DNA from: a virus
Taxonomy: Duplodnaviria > Caudoviricetes
Direction: 5' to 3' (one strand)
Virus record (IMG/VR): IMGVR_UViG_3300036982_000579
Location: 1-53,346 of that record
Length of the DNA stretch: 53,346 nt
Each line of letters opens with the position of its first letter. Positions within the stretch are counted from its first letter, which is position 1. Of the stretch, positions 15,964 to 51,808 are shown piece after piece. The translations under genes and the position numbers were made by a program. The notes beneath the pieces were generated by a model. It saw only the letters and a program-made list of their open reading frames with translations. It searched no databases and was not told the DNA's origin.

Positions 15964-16500
15964 ATGGCTCGTTGTGGATGTTCTTCTCAGTGTGTGTGTA
16001 GCGTTACGGGTGGTGACTGCGCTGTTGTCTCAGGCAATGGTTCTGTTGGTACGCCTTACACGGTTGATATTGTTGTTGATCCTTCAAGCGTAAATATGCT
16101 TGAATGTGGTGAAACTGGTTTGCTGGTTGAGTTGCAAACCGCTGACACGACTTGCATTGACTTGTCAGGTGCGGGCGTTGTGGGCTTTCCGCTTTTCGCA
16201 ACCCCGATCATTGACCCTGCTGCGGATAATATCTTGGAATGCGGTATTGCTGGCCTTCTAGCTAACATCTCTGTTGGCGAGACGAACTGCATTGAACTTT
16301 CCGGTACGGGAACCGTTGGCAATCCGCTTCTCGCTACTCCTGTGATTGCTGCCGTAGCTGGAAACATTTTGGAATGTGGCGCGTCTGGTCTGGTTGCTGG
16401 CGGTGCTGACTTCAAGACATGGGTGACAGGGATTTCTACGGCTCCAAGTCTTGCTGACCTGAAAGCGCACACCGTTACTTATCTTGCGACACTTCCTTGA
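15964..16500 (+). CDS. minor tail protein with internal repeats
   Basis: MARCGC start; three copies of G.G..G.P.......N.LECG..GL. Confidence 0.6.
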   Translation: MARCGCSSQCVCSVTGGDCAVVSGNGSVGTPYTVDIVVDPSSVNMLECGETGLLVELQTADTTCIDLSGAGVVGFPLFATPIIDPAADNILECGIAGLLANISVGETNCIELSGTGTVGNPLLATPVIAAVAGNILECGASGLVAGGADFKTWVTGISTAPSLADLKAHTVTYLATLP

Positions 16501-20430: not shown

Positions 20431-21996
20431 CTACGATTCGGGTTGGACGCTTTCCGTGGCCTCAGCCGTCAAGTCACCGGCCTGCACCGGCCCGCAAGCG
20501 CGTGTTGCTGCGCGAGCATCACCCTTCAAGAACACAAGCACATTCTGATGCGACTTGCCCATCTTGCGGGATACGTCGAACTGTTTACCGACACGCAGAA
20601 TCAGTGAAGCGAGATTCGTTACAAGGATCGCCTCGTTATACAAGGTAAGTCCTGCGTCTTGGAAAGCGCTGATCGTGTCTGAAACAAAGTTGCGGTAGTT
20701 CCCGTCAGGGCCACGGAAGTCTCCGACGACGACAACAGCGAACCGGTCGTCCTTCAACAGTTTTGTTGACTCATCAACAATCTGTCGGAATGACTCAATA
20801 AAAGTTGAGTAATCCATCGTTGAAAGATCACGAGGATCATCCGAGTACACTTCAAGATCACCGTATGGCGGACACGAAAACCACAAATCGGCTTCTAAAC
20901 CTTGACACAACTCGCCCACCTCAGCGGCATCTCCCTCAACCCACTGGGGCAGTGGTGCGGCGGCGAGTACAACTGACGGTCGGATAGCGCTAACCCATAA
21001 CAAGTCGCCCGGTTCCAACGTCGGAATGCACTTCGCCTCGTACCACGGGTCCAACTGCACCCCACGGAACACTGTCACCGCTGCCTCGTCATGGTAATCA
21101 GACGGGTGGTCAACAATCGTCACCATGTCTTGCCATCCGGGTGGTGCGTGCCTCTCAAGGCGTTCTAAGGGCGGGTGACCGACACACACACCAACTACCG
21201 GAATGTTTCTCCCCGCCTCAACTAGACCCCATAGGATGCCTGCAAGGGTCATTCCTGAGCCAACACTGTTCACAATCCGCTCAACACCGTCAGGGATATT
21301 CGCAACCTGAGGTTTCGTAAACTCAACCGCCTCCGGTGCTTCCATCCCATACGGAATCTCAACCCAACCAGACTGCAACGCATCCTCACGCGCACGCGCA
21401 ACGATCACCGTGTTGTACCCCGCCTGATGTTGAATCAACTCGCAACCAGCACCACGAGCCGCAAGAAGCTCCGGTGTCAGATCACCAGAAGGGACATGCG
21501 CGCGACACTTCACACCCAACGCCGCTGCGATCTGAGCCACAAAGTTCACTTGCGGCGACTGTCGTGACCCGGCGGTGATAACCCCTACGCCTTGTTCACG
21601 CGCACGCTCAACCAGAAGCATACAAGTCCGAACTTTCGCGCCCCTCACCCCACCAAAAACGTAATGATCTTCACGTTTCATCCAAATATCGCCATGAGTT
21701 TCAACCGGAGTTAGCTCAGGCATGTGATCCGCGGGGACATCCGGCACAAACGACAGTCCCCGGCACAACTTTTCACCTTGCAACTTGTTTGCTTCAACCT
21801 GTTCCGGGCGAACGTCAATACCCGTGTACTCCCGACCCAACTTCGACGCAACAATTCCCCGGACGGAACCCCCAGCGAACGGATCAAGCACTTGACCGCC
21901 GGGTGGACTGAACCATCTGTAGATCAGTTCACACAAAACAGGGTCGAACAGCGAAGTTGAACCTTCGCCGTAACCCTCAACTTCAGGTTCACCCAT
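20431..21996 (-). CDS. DNA amino-methyltransferase with an inserted fold-type-II PLP-dependent enzyme domain
   Basis: FDPVLCE, VLDPFAGGSVRG (motif I) and FSCPPY (motif IV) separated by TPVE..GDIWMKRED...GAKVR, VGSGMTLAG, LDPWYEAK. Confidence 0.8.
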   Translation of the reverse strand: MGEPEVEGYGEGSTSLFDPVLCELIYRWFSPPGGQVLDPFAGGSVRGIVASKLGREYTGIDVRPEQVEANKLQGEKLCRGLSFVPDVPADHMPELTPVETHGDIWMKREDHYVFGGVRGAKVRTCMLLVERAREQGVGVITAGSRQSPQVNFVAQIAAALGVKCRAHVPSGDLTPELLAARGAGCELIQHQAGYNTVIVARAREDALQSGWVEIPYGMEAPEAVEFTKPQVANIPDGVERIVNSVGSGMTLAGILWGLVEAGRNIPVVGVCVGHPPLERLERHAPPGWQDMVTIVDHPSDYHDEAAVTVFRGVQLDPWYEAKCIPTLEPGDLLWVSAIRPSVVLAAAPLPQWVEGDAAEVGELCQGLEADLWFSCPPYGDLEVYSDDPRDLSTMDYSTFIESFRQIVDESTKLLKDDRFAVVVVGDFRGPDGNYRNFVSDTISAFQDAGLTLYNEAILVTNLASLILRVGKQFDVSRKMGKSHQNVLVFLKGDARAATRACGPVQAGDLTAEATESVQPES

Positions 21997-22660
21997 TTTG
22001 CACCATGTCCGTCGCTTGATGGCCGTGACCCTGTGGCACGGCAACATTCCAAGTCAACGGTTTACCATCACGACCCAACTCAGACTCAATTCCAAGATCA
22101 GTCCACGCCCGTTTCCGATCTTGCCACCACCCTTCACGACTGTTCAGCACGCTGACAGGTAGACCAACGAATCGTTCCGCTAGTTTCACTGGCGCTTTGC
22201 GTGTCTCAGGAATCGGCAGGGGGTCGCCCAGTAGTTCTTCGGCTCGGGTTGCTGAAAGCAGAGAAGCAAGGTCTTCTTCGGTGTAGGACGCTGCAAGAAG
22301 CAAGCTTGTATCTTCATCCATTACTTCTTGGATCATCTTTGCCAGCAACTCGCTGTCGTAGCTGCCTAGATCGGATGTCCGGTTGTCGGCTAACGCAAAC
22401 GCTTTAGCTGTTGTGTTGTCATCTTCAACCCAAACAACAGCGATCTCAGTCCAACCTAATCTTCGGGCTGCTGCAAACGTGTGGTTACCTGCGATGATCT
22501 CGTTGGAACCTATCTGAGCAACAATCGGTTTGCGTTGACCGAACCTGTCAAGCGACCGCATCACAGACTCAACGTCACCTTGTCGGGCGTTGCCTGTCAG
22601 TGTTCGCAATCCGTCAATCGGCACACACAACGGTTGTAATTGCTCAACAATATTTGACAC
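21989..22660 (-). CDS. ParB/Srx-like domain protein (with methylase-associated C-terminal segment)
   Basis: FGQRKPIV..IIAGNHT.AAA..LGW, AFALADNRTS; GGAGG RBS before GTG. Confidence 0.8.
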   Translation of the reverse strand: MSNIVEQLQPLCVPIDGLRTLTGNARQGDVESVMRSLDRFGQRKPIVAQIGSNEIIAGNHTFAAARRLGWTEIAVVWVEDDNTTAKAFALADNRTSDLGSYDSELLAKMIQEVMDEDTSLLLAASYTEEDLASLLSATRAEELLGDPLPIPETRKAPVKLAERFVGLPVSVLNSREGWWQDRKRAWTDLGIESELGRDGKPLTWNVAVPQGHGHQATDMVQNG

Positions 22661-38049: not shown

Positions 38050-38116
38050 TAGATAACAATACAGCAGTTCTATTAGGAAAGCAAGGCCATATGGAACATT
38101 TCTTCAGATTTCTTTT
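38046..38116 (-). promoter_or_regulatory. family-1 phage promoter (ncRNA B)
   Basis: AAAAGAAATCTGAAGAAAT...TTGCTT...TGCTGTATTGTTATCTACATAA. Confidence 0.75.
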
Positions 38117-46912: not shown

Positions 46913-47899
46913 ATGGCGAAGAACACAGACATCACAATCCTCGGCAACGGGGGAAGCGTTCACGCAAACGAAAAGCACGACGGCCCGGTTCCTTTCGACC
47001 GGGTGCGTTCACTGTTCGACTTCAAGGTCGAATACACCCCGCTCTATACGCATGACGCTTTCGGTGACTCAGAGAAACTTCCGAACCGTCAGGCGATCCG
47101 TCGTACTGACACCGGGCTGATCCTCAACACGGTGTCCAAGTCTCACGGACTTCACCAGTTCAGCGACGTACTCGTGGACAACCTGTTCACTCTGCTTGAT
47201 GCGTCTGACAATGATCTTCAAGTTTCGGGTGCGGGTCTCCTGAAGAACGGTGCAGTTGGTTGGGTTCAGGTTCAGGCACCTTGCTTGGAAGCTGGCGAAG
47301 GCGATGTCGCCCCAACTCTCACGCTTGCATCTTCGCACGATGGGTCACTCGCCACTTCATATCGGATGGGCATGTTTCGCTTCATCTGTTCCAACCAGAT
47401 CGGCGCTCTCCGCAGGAAAAGCGACAACGTGTTCAAGTTGCGTCACACCCTCAACTCGTCGATGAACTTCACGACGGCTCGCAACACTCTCGGTCTGATG
47501 TGGAAGCAGGCTGAGTCCTTCAACGAGGAAGTCAACACGCTAATCAACCTTTCGGTGACCGACACTGAGTTCTACCGAATTGTGAACCGCTTGGCTCCGA
47601 TGCCACCGGAGTCCGCAACTGAGGCTGCTCGTACCCGGTGGGAGAATCGTGTTGAGTCGGTGTCCAACATCTATCGCAACGATGAGCGTGTTGGTGACTT
47701 CCGTGGAACCGGGTGGGGAGTTGTTCAGGCGTTCAATACTTATCGCCAGCATGAGCGCCCGTTCCGTGCGAATGGAACCGCTGGAACTACGTCACGACTT
47801 GGTCGCACGATGGGCGACTTCTTGTCGGGTGCGATTGACCTTGATGACCAGAAGGTGACGGCGGCGGTGTTCGCTGAGTCTGCTCGTAAGGGCTTGTGA
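46913..47899 (+). CDS. DUF932 family protein
   Basis: LASSHDGS, RFICSNQ, LRHT, GTGWGVVQA motifs. Confidence 0.85.
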   Translation: MAKNTDITILGNGGSVHANEKHDGPVPFDRVRSLFDFKVEYTPLYTHDAFGDSEKLPNRQAIRRTDTGLILNTVSKSHGLHQFSDVLVDNLFTLLDASDNDLQVSGAGLLKNGAVGWVQVQAPCLEAGEGDVAPTLTLASSHDGSLATSYRMGMFRFICSNQIGALRRKSDNVFKLRHTLNSSMNFTTARNTLGLMWKQAESFNEEVNTLINLSVTDTEFYRIVNRLAPMPPESATEAARTRWENRVESVSNIYRNDERVGDFRGTGWGVVQAFNTYRQHERPFRANGTAGTTSRLGRTMGDFLSGAIDLDDQKVTAAVFAESARKGL

Positions 47900-47915
47900 G
47901 TTGTTGTTGGTGATG

Positions 47916-47945
47916 GGGGGACCGGGTAGCGCCGGTCCCTTTGTC
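47916..47945 (+). terminator. intrinsic terminator
   Basis: GGGACCGG-TAGCG-CCGGTCCC-TTTGT. Confidence 0.65.
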
Positions 47946-48000
47946 GCGTGTTGGGTTCAACCCGGCGGGCCGTGTCACTGGGAGAGGCGGCGGGTCGTCG

Positions 48001-48082
48001 AAAAAGAATCCAAAAGAAATCCAAGAAATATCTCATTTGGAGTTGCAAACTGTCAGACACATGTAGTACTGTTATCTACATA
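48001..48082 (+). promoter_or_regulatory. family-1 phage promoter (ncRNA D)
   Basis: AAAAGAAATCCAAGAAAT...TTGCAA-18-TACTGT TATCTACATAA. Confidence 0.75.
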
Positions 48083-48619
48083 AGCAGTGAGCAACAAGAA
48101 CCGGACACACAACCGGGGGCGAATCGCAGCAAGACGCACAAAGCGTGTAGCGGGTTCCGGGTGACACACCACCTAAAAGGAAATGTGACGGTTGCACACT
48201 CAGCAACAGAAAGAGCGAGTGCTAGTTAGATTCTGTTTGATACCAGAAGACGATTGAAGTGCATGAAGTAGCCTCCGGGTGTAAGCCTTCCTCTCCTAAG
48301 ACATCCTCAGTACGGCTTCCTCAACAGTAACTAGAATGACTCAAGTTGAAACTTGCGGTATCGGACCCAAGACGATTGAGGTGACCAAGTAGTCGAAAGA
48401 CGTAAGCCTTGCTCTCCCAACACATCCCTAGTACGGCACCTCCGCAGCAACTTGAGTGGTTGGTCAGTGGAATCGTCTGGAGACAGACAGGCACACAGAG
48501 TCAAGTGAAAGCGTCGTCAAGAGCGTAATCACCGAAGCGTATTCGGTCGGGGAGCAAGGCAGCCCGATGTTGCGTCACAGGGATAGAAACTTGCAGCTCT
48601 TATTCAGAACATCGGTTCC
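48079..48619 (+). ncRNA. candidate large structured ncRNA D (~540 nt) with internal duplicated module
   Basis: own promoter; nested helices GAACCGG/TCGGTTC, TGTGACG/CGTCACA, CTGTTTG/CAGACAG; ~90-nt covarying repeat. Confidence 0.72.
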
Positions 48620-48630
48620 ACTGACCAACC

Positions 48631-48697
48631 AAAAGAAATATCAAACAATCTTCTGTTTCGACTTGCGGACTGTAGTCGCATCGACTACTATCTTGTG
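48631..48697 (+). promoter_or_regulatory. family-1 phage promoter (ncRNA E)
   Basis: AAAAGAAATATCAAA...GACTTGCGG-17-TACTAT. Confidence 0.7.
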
Positions 48698-49774
48698 TGT
48701 GGGGGGGCAACAACCTCACAACAGCAACTTGAAAACAGAGACAAGCTTGAGCGGCTAAGAGATCAGCAAGGCCCCCACGCAAAGAACGGGACATTCCAAA
48801 CCGGCAACAACGTGACAAACCTTCAACAGACTCTTAGCCCTCAAGAAAGCAATGAGCGCCTTGTAGGTTGCTCACGCAATTAGCAGCACCAACCAAAGTT
48901 CAGCAGATGTCCGCACGTCGGAAACTGTCGGCAGCGGAGGTTGACAGTAGGAACCTGAGTTAGGTACTTGAGCAGCAATCGCAACAGCATGGAAACTGAG
49001 TAGGGTTCCGGGGCTGGAGGATCGTATCCTTCACGCTGCGGGTCAAAACCTCAAAGGTGATAAACGCTGAAGCCTTTAGCTGACACCGATCCATACCGCC
49101 CTACGCTAATCAAACGGACTAATTACCCGGAGCGTGAACAACCTATAAGGCATTCAATGCCCCGAAGTCCGGCAAGGCTGGAATCAACTTCATATAACCA
49201 CCGCGAAGTTAGCGGCGAGCCGGTGAAAAGCCGACCCCCATAGCGGCGGGCAGACTGCTTAGGCTTCTTCTAGTCCTAAAGGGCCAACATCAACACAGTT
49301 GGAATTAGAACCCATAGATTTCCCCACGGGGTGAGAAATACCGTGTGCGTAGTCAGCGTTGAGTTGGACTAAGCGGGTGGGATACCCGCACACATCGCTA
49401 TCACGCAAGTGATACAGGATTGAATCTTGATGAGATAGGCGGAGTTCGTCGGGTCACTCCCGAAACGATCCAAGCGTCAACTCAAGATTCAGGGGAGGGT
49501 TCGGCAAGGCCGGTATTCCGCAGACAAGCACCTTAGCCCGAGCTTAGTGAGCGAAGGAGAGACCGCCGCTGGACTGTAGCCCGGAATGCTGAACCCCCCC
49601 ACCTTCTAGTACTTCAGCGGGTAGCACCGTAGGAGCCGACCAGCAGACAGATGCGGAAAGGAAGTCTGATACAGGCTGAACAGATGCGGCGTGCCGCTCA
49701 AACTCAGTGCAACGACGACTATTCCAAACGCCGCTGCTATAGGGGAGCCGGTGCTGCCCACTGAAGTACTAGAA
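48698..49774 (+). ncRNA. candidate large structured ncRNA E (~1075 nt)
   Basis: no ORF of 60 aa or more in any frame 48884-49605; many long-range helices; 26-bp terminal helix. Confidence 0.78.
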
Positions 49775-49840
49775 AAGAATCTCAAAGATATTTGCAAATG
49801 GCCTTGACTCTTGTAGCCACATCAACTACATTAGTTCTTG
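49773..49840 (+). promoter_or_regulatory. family-1 phage promoter (ncRNA F)
   Basis: AAAAGAATCTCAAAGATAT...TTGACT-17-TACATT. Confidence 0.75.
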
Positions 49841-50558
49841 TAAGGGAGAAACAAGCCCTAGCACGCAACTTGAAAACAGAGACAAAGCATCACGACAAGA
49901 AATACAAAGTCGCTTCCTCGAAAGAGGACACAACGGAGGATGGACCTTGCCCACTCAATAAGCCACGCCAATGGCTTGAGAGGAGCAACACGAAAGTGCA
50001 AGGTGTGGAAGTAGTAGTAGCTGTTTCTGCCAATCGAAAGGTTGAACTATCCAAAGACGCACCCTGAGAAATCAGGGGCATGAGGTTGAGAGCAGCACCC
50101 GCTTCGGCGGGGCCGATACCGAGGCACGGTATCGGGGAGAAAATGGATAACCGCTGCCGCAAGCTAACGCTTGCCACCGCTACTACGGTGAACTCAGGGC
50201 AATCGCAGGCTCGCCCCGCAAGGGACGCAGAGCCGCAAAGGAATACTGGAAGGCTAGACACGGCAACCCACGGTTCGGGGTTGGCGTGTGCCTCAACTGA
50301 ACCAAGCACCGCACCATCTCCGGTCTATGAGATGGGAGGCACCATGCAGCATCGGGAATATCGCCTCAACCAAGTCCCAACGCTGAACGAAACCGCAGAT
50401 TGTGGCTGCGGATAGGAGTAGCTGAACTTGTCAGCGGGGTCTAGCCTGCCCGCCTAACGAACAAGGTAGACGGGGCTTGCAAGTACATAGGAACTGCTTG
50501 CAAGCCTCGCAACAAACAAGCCCTGACGATTCGTTCGTGCAGGGCTGTTTGCGTTTTT
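49840..50558 (+). ncRNA. candidate large structured ncRNA F (~720 nt)
   Basis: four GAAA, one GCAA and one cUUCGg capped hairpins; terminator; module shared with ncRNA C. Confidence 0.78.
50514..50558 (+). terminator. intrinsic terminator after D-E-F block
   Basis: CAAACaAGCCCTG...CAGGGCTGTTTG then CGTTTTT. Confidence 0.65.
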
Positions 50559-50562
50559 GGAC

Positions 50563-50690
50563 CCGCCGCTATTCCGCCGCTATTCCGCCGCTATTCCGCC
50601 GTTGATCCGCCGTTGATCCGCCGTTGATCCGCCGTTGAAATGGCGGTCTTCCGCCGCCAATCCGCCACACCGCCCGCCGCCGCCGGACGG
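50563..50690 (+). repeat. 11-bp tandem repeat
   Basis: (CCGCCGCTATT)x3 then (CCGCCGTTGAT)x~4, then degenerate CCGCC units. Confidence 0.9.
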
Positions 50691-50914
50691 CCCAGCGCCC
50701 AGTAGCGTCAAGCCGATCTGGTACACTTGCTCATATCGGGTCCAAAACACTCACGGGGCCGGTGACCCAATACGCGAAGAAGCCGGACGATTAGTACTCG
50801 CCCGGCCCTTCTAAGACACCTCCGCCATACCCATTGGCGTGTCAGTTCCTGAGTCCAAGCATACAGTACTTGGTCGGGGTTGCACACTTCAGGGTCCGGC
50901 AGGGAAGGACTGAA

Positions 50915-51808
50915 GTGACGATCAGAGTTGAACACAGAACACAGTTCACAGTTGTTGACTCAAGAACTATCAACGATGAAGCCTTGTCGTTGCGCGCCAC
51001 TGGGCTGCTTGTGTGGCTTCTTGATAAACCGGATGGTTGGCGGATCAACTCAATAGAGATCAGTAAGCGGTGCAAGGAAGGTCGTGATGCTATCCGTGCT
51101 GCGATAGCGGAGCTTGAAGAAGCGGGCTATTTGACGCGTGAAAAGTATCGTGGCCCGGATGGTCGTTGGGTGAATGAGTCGGTTGTTCGTGAACGTCCGC
51201 TTGTTGAACCAGATGTGCAAATCATTGAACCAGACACAGACTTTGTTGATAGTCATATTGACCGGGGACTGGAAACCCGTCGCCGGATAACCGGAGCCGG
51301 AGAAACGGGTTCCGGTTTTTCAGGCCCTATTATCAGTACTAAGAGTCAAGACTATAAAAAGACTATAAAGACTTATGTCAACGAAACAGAAAAAGCGGAA
51401 ACGGAAGCTGCTTCTTTACCGCCTCGTTCTGAACTTCAACTCGTTGACGCAGGGCAGATAACAAAAAACGTGGGGACAGCGGAGCGGGTGATGGAAGCGT
51501 GGGTCGCCGCCACCGGGCGCGCACCGGGGAAAGTGAAGTTGAACGCTAAACGTAGGGCTGCTGTTGCTGCCCGGTTGCGGGAGGGGTATACCGAGGAGGA
51601 CTTGATTGCTGCGGCACGGGGGATTGCGTTATCTGCTTGGCATACCGGGGATAACCCTGATGGGAAGAAGTTTGATGATCTGCTTGTTGCGATCAGGGAC
51701 GGTGAGCGGGTTGAGCGGTTCAGGGACATCTACGAGGCTGGCGGTGAACGTGGCCGTATGTCGTCTACGGATCAGGTCATGGCTTTGTACGCTCAGGAGC
51801 AAGCATGA
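50915..51808 (+). CDS. replication initiator (N-terminal wHTH)
   Basis: FTVV....I.D..LSLRA.GLL.WLL..PDGW...EGRDAI.AAI.ELE.AGYL; upstream of loader and helicase. Confidence 0.75.
   Translation: MTIRVEHRTQFTVVDSRTINDEALSLRATGLLVWLLDKPDGWRINSIEISKRCKEGRDAIRAAIAELEEAGYLTREKYRGPDGRWVNESVVRERPLVEPDVQIIEPDTDFVDSHIDRGLETRRRITGAGETGSGFSGPIISTKSQDYKKTIKTYVNETEKAETEAASLPPRSELQLVDAGQITKNVGTAERVMEAWVAATGRAPGKVKLNAKRRAAVAARLREGYTEEDLIAAARGIALSAWHTGDNPDGKKFDDLLVAIRDGERVERFRDIYEAGGERGRMSSTDQVMALYAQEQA

Follow-up and report, generated by a model that had tools for sequence, protein, structure and literature searches.

A tandem duplication accompanied by compensatory base changes is present in RNA D, an apparent non-coding RNA of about 550 nt (about 48080-48631) that seems to be headed by its own promoter and holds both copies of the duplicated element. 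It is well supported that the element is an independently folding domain of RNA type, read from the + strand, and also well supported that this domain is under strong constraint and is reused in other RNAs of the same phage group. The window, by which we mean the whole stretch of DNA analysed, is a linear record of 53,346 bases from an uncultured virus, with an estimated completeness of 66%.

The two copies start at 48247 and 48369, both with AAGACGATTGA, and lie 122 nt apart, exactly as a preliminary description of this DNA had read them. Aligned globally, the 92-nt cores are identical in 69 of 94 columns and score 41, a value that was reached by none of 3000 window pairs at equal spacing elsewhere (mean -10.7) and by none of 1000 dinucleotide shuffles. 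A general repeat search lists the pair (entries D3 and D17), and Tandem Repeats Finder did not report it. The repeated unit was at first taken to be about 90 nt long; the unit is in fact larger, about 113-119 nt, and forms a closed domain, the parts of which are as follows.

48222-48334, + strand: copy 1, closed domain
48222-48228:48328-48334 and 48233-48237:48323-48327, + strand: closing helix of copy 1 in the full-length fold
48247-48255, + strand: conserved strand AAGACGAUU of copy 1
48256-48259:48319-48322, + strand: short helix of copy 1, with one mismatch
48265-48268:48287-48290, + strand: P1 of copy 1, GAAG:CUUC
48271-48273:48278-48280, + strand: hairpin of copy 1, loop UCCG
48291-48315, + strand: invariant strand J of copy 1
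48339-48457, + strand: copy 2, closed domain
48339-48348:48448-48457 and 48353-48358:48442-48447, + strand: closing helix of copy 2 in the full-length fold
48369-48377, + strand: conserved strand AAGACGAUU of copy 2
48378-48383:48437-48442, + strand: short helix of copy 2, GAGGUG:CACCUC
48386-48389:48408-48411, + strand: P1 of copy 2, CAAG:CUUG
48392-48394:48399-48401, + strand: hairpin of copy 2, loop GAAA
48412-48436, + strand: strand J of copy 2

Each copy is predicted to form an irregular rod, in which a closing helix is followed by a helix of 4-6 bp and then by P1 topped by a tetraloop hairpin. The closing helix comprises 12-16 bp in the full-length fold of RNA D and is formed between the sequence just upstream of a copy and the copy's own tail. 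When its 13 homologous pairs are compared between the copies (offset 120), seven are unchanged, four are changed on both sides, one shows a one-sided change (C-G to U-G) and one is paired in copy 2 only; 25 of the 26 cells pair, a count that falls to 7-14 once the partner is displaced by 1-3 nt. The closing duplex of copy 2 has an energy of -22.1 kcal/mol (7 of 1000 shuffles were as good) and that of copy 2 in the relative L007 has -22.9 kcal/mol (3 of 1000), while copy 1, at -13.7 kcal/mol and with 69 of 1000 shuffled upstream strands as good, is marginal. The inner helices (short helix, P1 and hairpin) pair in 89.7% of cells over nine distinct rows, with three pairs changed on both sides and a covariation score of 0.247 compared with 0.117 in shuffles (none of 500 reached it) and at most 0.051 when slid, figures taken from a model-guided alignment in which the structure was derived from the very sequences counted and four independent module types are represented. 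The variable pair of P1 is G-C in six distinct rows and C-G in three, and the mismatch in the short helix at 48256-48259:48319-48322 is found in every copy 1 row.

The hairpins are those originally described, GCC-TCCG-GGT at 48271-48280 and GTC-GAAA-GAC at 48392-48401, with the pairing kept and the sequence changed. Relatives carry GCC-TTCG-GGC, ACC-TTCG-GGT and GCC-CTCG-GGT, and the 3-bp stem is kept in all six variants, although the hairpin tested alone was not significant (76 of 500 shuffles). Five of the six variants have, on the + strand only, loops of the UNCG or GNRA classes (UCCG, GAAA, UUCG twice and the UCCG of the M4 copy described below), which together account for 12 of the 256 possible tetramers, CUCG being the sole variant outside them. 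G-U pairs in the domain are also restricted to the + strand. Folding energy of the single sequence of whole RNA D was not better than that of shuffles (z -1.31 and -0.71 for the two strands), and all 200 shuffles of the copy 1 unit fold better than the unit itself (z +2.2). One further helix, GCC/GGC at 48286-48288:48314-48316, was dropped because it is invariant everywhere and clashes with P1.

On the 3' side of the domain lies strand J, a G-poor stretch of 25 nt (CUCUCC-y-AA-s-ACAUCC-yy-AGUACGG) that is almost identical in all four module types; G content in the two copies is 15% and 12%. Averaged over its length, the probability of being unpaired reaches 0.53 and 0.61 for the two copies of the strand, compared with 0.41 over all of RNA D, and the inner helices are predicted to frame the strand and hold it open. 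The strand AAGACGAUU on the 5' side is conserved as well and has no pairing partner in the model of the domain. Among the records that carry RNA D, strand J varies solely at a two-pyrimidine spot, which reads CCTCAG in copy 1, CCCTAG in copy 2 and CCTTAG in both copies of L005 and L140, the copies of these last two records (L005:2635-2846 and L140:90-301) being alike there because of two different C-to-T changes.

The remainder of RNA D consists of a promoter-like element and two domains flanking the copies, within which two stretches can be paired with the domain.

48002-48072, + strand: promoter-like element of RNA D, with an A-rich stretch, TTGCAA at 48043-48048, an 18-nt spacer and TACTGT at 48067-48072
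48080-48221, + strand: 5' domain of RNA D, its start placed from the promoter
48458-48631, + strand: 3' domain of RNA D, with an 18-bp closing helix 48458-48475:48613-48630
48470-48481, + strand: GGAAUCGUCUGG / GGAATCGTCTGG, forming inverted repeat I3 with the AAGACGAUU strand
48549-48560, + strand: GGGGAGCAAGGC, proposed cis partner of the pyrimidine tract of copy 2

The A-rich stretch, TTG and TAnnnT align in register in all eight regions upstream of units that were compared (D, E and F of the window, D' and G of L144, and those of L002, L006 and L007), and a consensus promoter scanner did not call the RNA D site. The 5' domain is 93-97% identical in five relatives, and RNA D' of L144 has its first approximately 45 nt in common with it. 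The 3' domain ends without a U tail, and after it comes the A-rich stretch belonging to the next promoter; with -74.2 kcal/mol (z -6.66) the domain is more stable than any of 200 shuffles. In L002 a C-to-T change in this domain gives G-U in place of a G-C pair, as read on the + strand, and in L007 and L008 a different hairpin-closed domain stands in its place, the mosaic breakpoint lying directly after the closing helix of copy 2, at 48457. The stretch 48470-48481 is complementary to AAGACGATT in either copy (48247-48257 and 48369-48379), and the duplex of the 5' strand of copy 2 with its 3' flank has -19.0 kcal/mol, not equalled by any of 500 shuffles; copy 2 of L007 gave no significant pairing of this kind (101 of 500 shuffles), and the partner at 48470-48481 is absent from L007 and L008. 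This stretch overlaps the 5' arm of the closing helix of the 3' domain, and an alternative pairing or conformational switch is therefore possible.

Part of the array to which RNA D belongs was found in 20 of the 23 runs listed, mostly sediment and lake metagenomes, two of them metatranscriptomes from one study. It is the contigs from these metatranscriptomes that suggest transcription of RNA D: they cover 48066-48744 and 48051-48744 with word depths of 703 and 640, values that, like the gaps in the cover, permit no ranking of expression and leave strand and ends unreadable. Contigs of the RNA libraries cover the flanking genes too, and one continues across the promoter. The copies are not spanned by any ORF, and no ORF is conserved; minus-strand frames of 57 aa are reduced to 34 and 45 aa in L007.

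A search with the DUF932 protein encoded beside the array led to nine viral loci, and a 26-nt pattern of the module matched twice, at a distance of 121 nt, in each of six viral contigs. A metagenome scan gave eight stretches, of which one was a new short contig (L140) and two were already known; the five others were single matches and were judged unrelated on reading the sequences. RNA D is thus present in eight records (the window, L002, L003, L005, L006, L007, L008 and L140), and homologs keep the duplication, both copies lying 122 nt apart in eight of eight. In five relatives the module region is 96-100% identical, compared with 82-87% for the flanking DUF932 DNA and 86-91%, where alignable, for the DNA of the replication-initiator-like gene (rep) on the other side. 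L009, a relative with 66% identity, has no RNA D, yet has other units in common with the window.

The covariance model search that had been proposed was carried out with a model of the core of the module (R1), which recovered all 14 copies in these records and also found two diverged single copies in L144, with 33.7 and 36.2 bits (E about 1e-6 to 1e-7). These are situated, one each, in two promoter-headed RNAs on the strand opposite to the DUF932 gene of that contig.

L144:4704-5020 and L144:9832-10246, opposite strand to the DUF932 gene: promoter-headed RNAs with one diverged copy each

RNA D' of L144 has the promoter type and the first approximately 45 nt of RNA D and is otherwise different, and the M4 copy is placed in a third promoter-headed RNA. 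M4 possesses its own closing helix of the 24-bp class (-31.7 kcal/mol, 0 of 1000 shuffles), and its hairpin is situated 3' of GUAAGUC, not 5' of it. In D' no upstream closure was found (462 of 1000 shuffles), and the 5' strand pairs with its own tail instead (25 of 500). The occurrence of diverged single copies in other RNAs indicates that the domain is reusable and that its duplication is specific to the D lineage.

The family of the domain is narrow and comprises nine contigs. No extra copies were found in the whole records of five relatives. The pattern AAGTAG-N(8-14)-GTAAGCCTT matched at least 120 stretches, and nhmmer on 119 such loci gave a best E of 0.12; the pattern CTCCNAANACATNCNNAGTANG matched 52 stretches, and none of the 45 not previously known fell below E 0.99 with R1. 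L144 was the only addition from a search with the pattern of the promoter start. Cultured phages gave no DNA match to 47900-50900, and no relative of the DUF932 protein was found in prokaryote genomes. A degenerate pattern of strand J, searched on both strands of 185,579 genomes, one per species, had no match, and E. coli genomes gave none either. Matches of the terminase among cultured phages were all below 60% identity and came from 29 records of mixed hosts, and therefore no host can be inferred. Candidates for a third, degenerate copy within the window, at 48125-48165 (D10) and upstream of rep at 50755-50833 (D8, D15), were rejected, R1 finding neither of them with filters off; the window upstream of rep is in the top 1% for shared 7-mers only, and other windows score above it.

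RNA D lies in an ORF-poor block of about 2.9 kb (47900-50833, with no long ORF) between the DUF932 and the initiator-like genes, the elements of which are listed here.

46913-47899: DUF932 gene (Pfam E 2e-37), one flank of the block
50834-51808: replication-initiator-like gene (rep; PHROG matches), the other flank
50549-50677: nine 11-nt iterons of the CCGCCGCTATT and CCGCCGTTGAT types, directly upstream of the initiator-like gene
48671-48744 and 49812-49885: repeat AACTTGAAAACAGAGACAA
48554, 48766, 49172 and 49504, + strand: GCAAGGC
48447, 48724 and 49865, + strand: GCAACTTGA

The block appears to be an array of three or more promoter-headed RNA units, whose starts lie near 48080, 48700 and 49840, and the iteron stretch is probably a replication origin. 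All units are oriented towards rep and end in hairpin domains without U tails, and their content (present, absent or swapped) varies between relatives along the whole array, which for this reason can be considered a mosaic. The block is A-rich: AT skew of the + strand is +0.23 to +0.25 over 48001-50000 and mostly negative elsewhere. Tetraloop hairpins are mildly more dense in the array (2.7 against 1.6 per kb), and GCAAGGC occurs on the + strand four times in its 2.9 kb compared with seven times in the other 50 kb.

Several other features of the sequence can be recorded. GCAAGGC at 49172 and 49504 forms hairpins of the GGC-AAG-GCC type. One of the three GCAACTTGA occurrences is the 3' closing strand of copy 2, and the remaining two are found in the two units that follow, about 35-45 nt from the unit starts and inside repeat AACTTGAAAACAGAGACAA. 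A 26-nt inverted repeat, 92% complementary, closes a 170-nt domain at 49604-49774, before the next A-rich promoter stretch, and this domain resembles, by eye, the replacement 3' domain of L007 and L008. Copy 1 carries CTAGAATG at 48331-48338. Outside the block, Shine-Dalgarno-like sites were seen upstream of a minority of candidate starts only; TAGAAT stands 4-7 nt before three candidate start codons (20421 on the minus strand, 23626 and 40772), and AGGATTCT precedes the starts at 15964 and 16512. An ORF of 538 aa on the minus strand (20431-22047) joins a DNA methylase motif (N6_N4_Mtase, residues 41-87) to a domain of pyridoxal-phosphate-dependent enzymes (PALP, residues 116-298), which is an unusual pairing.

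We tentatively read the pair of domains in RNA D as a two-site, trans-acting binding platform, and give this reading a little less than an even chance. The helices would serve as a scaffold and the invariant strands would be the part read by a trans partner, possibly a purine-rich RNA or a single-stranded-RNA-binding protein, which would probably be encoded by the host. Duplication would make RNA D a bivalent (two-site) decoy or sponge, and the very stable 3' domain may protect or end the transcript. The reading is weakened because no partner was found, because there are only four module types and because the closure of copy 1 is marginal. In the window, neither tract and not strand J has a target above chance, an ungapped complementarity scan of both strands giving no above-chance complement of strand J and the words of 11-12 nt that it shares with the window being of chance length. 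No RNA-binding protein was recognized among the 28 ORFs compared with Pfam and/or PHROGs, and the neighbouring small ORFs have no PHROG function.

It is possible, though unlikely, that the domain serves instead as an architectural unit in a large ornate RNA, with its invariant strands making tertiary or inter-RNA contacts within RNA D or the array. The array does contain many hairpins and A-rich joints, and motifs recur in it (GCAAGGC four times, GCAACTTGA three times); GCAAGGC is complementary to GCCUUGC of copy 2, and large phage-associated RNAs have been reported to assemble into homo-oligomers (PMC12286853). However, the domain is found in three RNAs with differing remainders, which makes a fixed cis partner outside the domain unlikely, L007 and L008 have lost the sole strong cis complement with the domain unchanged, and the array holds no complement to the 25-nt strand.

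The preliminary description proposed that the tract of copy 2, GCCTTGCTCTCCC, pairs in cis with 48549-48560 and that the tract of copy 1 is free to act as an anti-Shine-Dalgarno seed, which we regard as decidedly doubtful. The complementarity itself is real: the stretch 48548-48560 differs by two mismatches from the exact complement of the copy 2 tract, the duplex of 48406-48418 with 48549-48560 has -25.3 kcal/mol (3 of 200 shuffled tracts were as good), and both bases that set this tract apart from that of copy 1 improve the pairing. As the reason for the tract, however, cis pairing does not hold up well, because the tracts' C/G difference is matched by a covarying G/C difference lying 25 nt further upstream, so that P1 compensates for it within each copy, because the partner is buried in a hairpin of its own (48546-48551:48563-48568, with an inner GC/GC stack) within the stable 3' domain (z -6.7), and because L007 and L008 are without the partner and have the tract unchanged. 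The two stretches may still form an alternative contact. In the model of the domain, half of the tract (CCUU + C/G) is predicted to be paired, with CUCUCC and the next 19 bases free. That the copy 1 tract has no comparable cis partner was confirmed, its best duplex (-19.4 kcal/mol, 29 of 200 shuffles as good) being at chance and its only + strand site within two mismatches being at 38075. CUCUCC and CCUC are complementary to GGAG-type sites, for example those upstream of 38312, 40772 and 46913, but only about 8 of 27 candidate starts, the choice of which is uncertain, are preceded by GGAG, GAGG or AGGA.

A cis-acting transcription element, whose C-rich, G-poor and unstructured stretches would affect Rho or the polymerase during transcription, appears improbable to us. 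It could resemble a rut site, for loading or as a decoy, or a put antiterminator, and would in either case control read-through along the array into the replication genes. It would fit units that all point at rep and end in hairpin domains without U tails, and it would also fit the composition of the copies, since 78-nt windows over them have C/G ratios of 1.25-1.57 and 10-15 YC dinucleotides, higher than the 0.64-1.0 and 4-9 of the 5' and 3' domains by the same measure. Nevertheless, this excess of C is modest, most units of the array are without the domain, and no Rho loading site is known to require 25 invariant bases or a covarying scaffold.

Very improbable is a signal acting in single-stranded DNA near the origin, such as a primosome-assembly or priming site, and not in RNA. 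Covarying hairpins would fold in DNA too, and the element shares its intergenic block with the iterons at 50549-50677 and the initiator gene; yet these iterons are 2.1 kb away, the L144 copies lie at two separate places with a promoter-like element before each, the loop classes are those stable in RNA, and contigs of RNA libraries cover the element. Finally, a spacer duplication that is neutral and has no function, or a gene for a small protein, is hardly credible in spite of there being two copies only in a small family of nine contigs, given conservation of 96-100% beside genes that are 82-91% identical, compensatory changes in four helices and the lack of a conserved ORF.

Comparison with known RNA families gave no assignment. 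None of the 4227 models of Rfam 15 matched the window at the gathering score, and at E of 10 or less the region 47850-50900 gave only a chance-level hit to asX2 (50457-50547, 17.4 bits against a threshold of 70). ARAGORN found no tRNA or tmRNA gene in the window. For retrons and DRT systems, the reverse transcriptase family PF00078 had no match in the window, and the same was true of PF07282 for omega RNA (TnpB/IscB) and, over six frames, of the Ro (TROVE) family PF05731 for Y RNA, the record being 66% complete. We did not find the domain described in the literature searched; the supplementary motif lists of one study (PMC10690425) may contain it.

Four systems deserve closer comparison, as far as structure and setting are concerned. 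The domain matched none of the GOLLD, ROOL and OLE covariance models. GOLLD and ROOL are phage-carried RNAs of hundreds of nt, with many stable-tetraloop hairpins and A-rich joints, whose function is not known. The RNAs described here are likewise phage-borne, long and rich in hairpins with stable tetraloops and A-rich joints, but differ in being several shorter RNAs, each with a promoter of its own and with domains exchanged between relatives. In sRNAs of the RsaE/RoxS type and in RNAIII, C/U-rich unpaired seeds pair with ribosome-binding sites. RNA D resembles them by several CUCC/UCC motifs that fall in predicted unpaired stretches and are repeated within it; unlike such C-rich seeds, its 25-nt strand is invariant, far longer and set in a 115-nt covarying scaffold. 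6S RNA, for which no model match was obtained at E of 10 or less, is a rod of about 180 nt with one central bubble and mimics an open promoter. The domain is similar in being predicted as a rod with a long closing helix, large asymmetric unpaired regions and an apical hairpin, and dissimilar in its length of 113-119 nt and in having two unpaired regions at different levels of the rod; the likeness may be a lead towards a protein-decoy mechanism. Type III antitoxins (ToxI) consist of several copies of repeats of about 34-40 nt next to the gene of a ToxN-type endoribonuclease. In both cases RNA repeats follow one another head to tail, are carried or used by phages and may be cut into units, while the domain has a period of 120-122 nt, two copies and no conserved ORF of at least 30 aa beside or across it.

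From these results we conclude that the domain is a new, narrowly distributed structured RNA domain of a known kind, phage-borne structured RNAs of unknown function. A compact phage genome spends about 2.9 kb on promoter-headed structured RNAs that are better conserved than the adjoining genes. A bolder proposal, which we consider rather unlikely, is that the domain is a molecular decoy made by the phage, whose scaffold would display the 25-nt strand together with AAGACGAUU and capture a specific host factor, such as a defence sensor, an RNA-binding regulator or RNA polymerase. The phages could vary the dose of such a decoy through duplication of the domain and its transfer into different promoter-driven RNAs of the 2.9-kb "RNA island", which would then correspond, at the level of RNA, to the variable accessory regions that code for proteins in phage genomes. 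If the domain does bind a host factor, it would represent a new RNA family and a compact, experimentally tractable case of RNA-based host manipulation.
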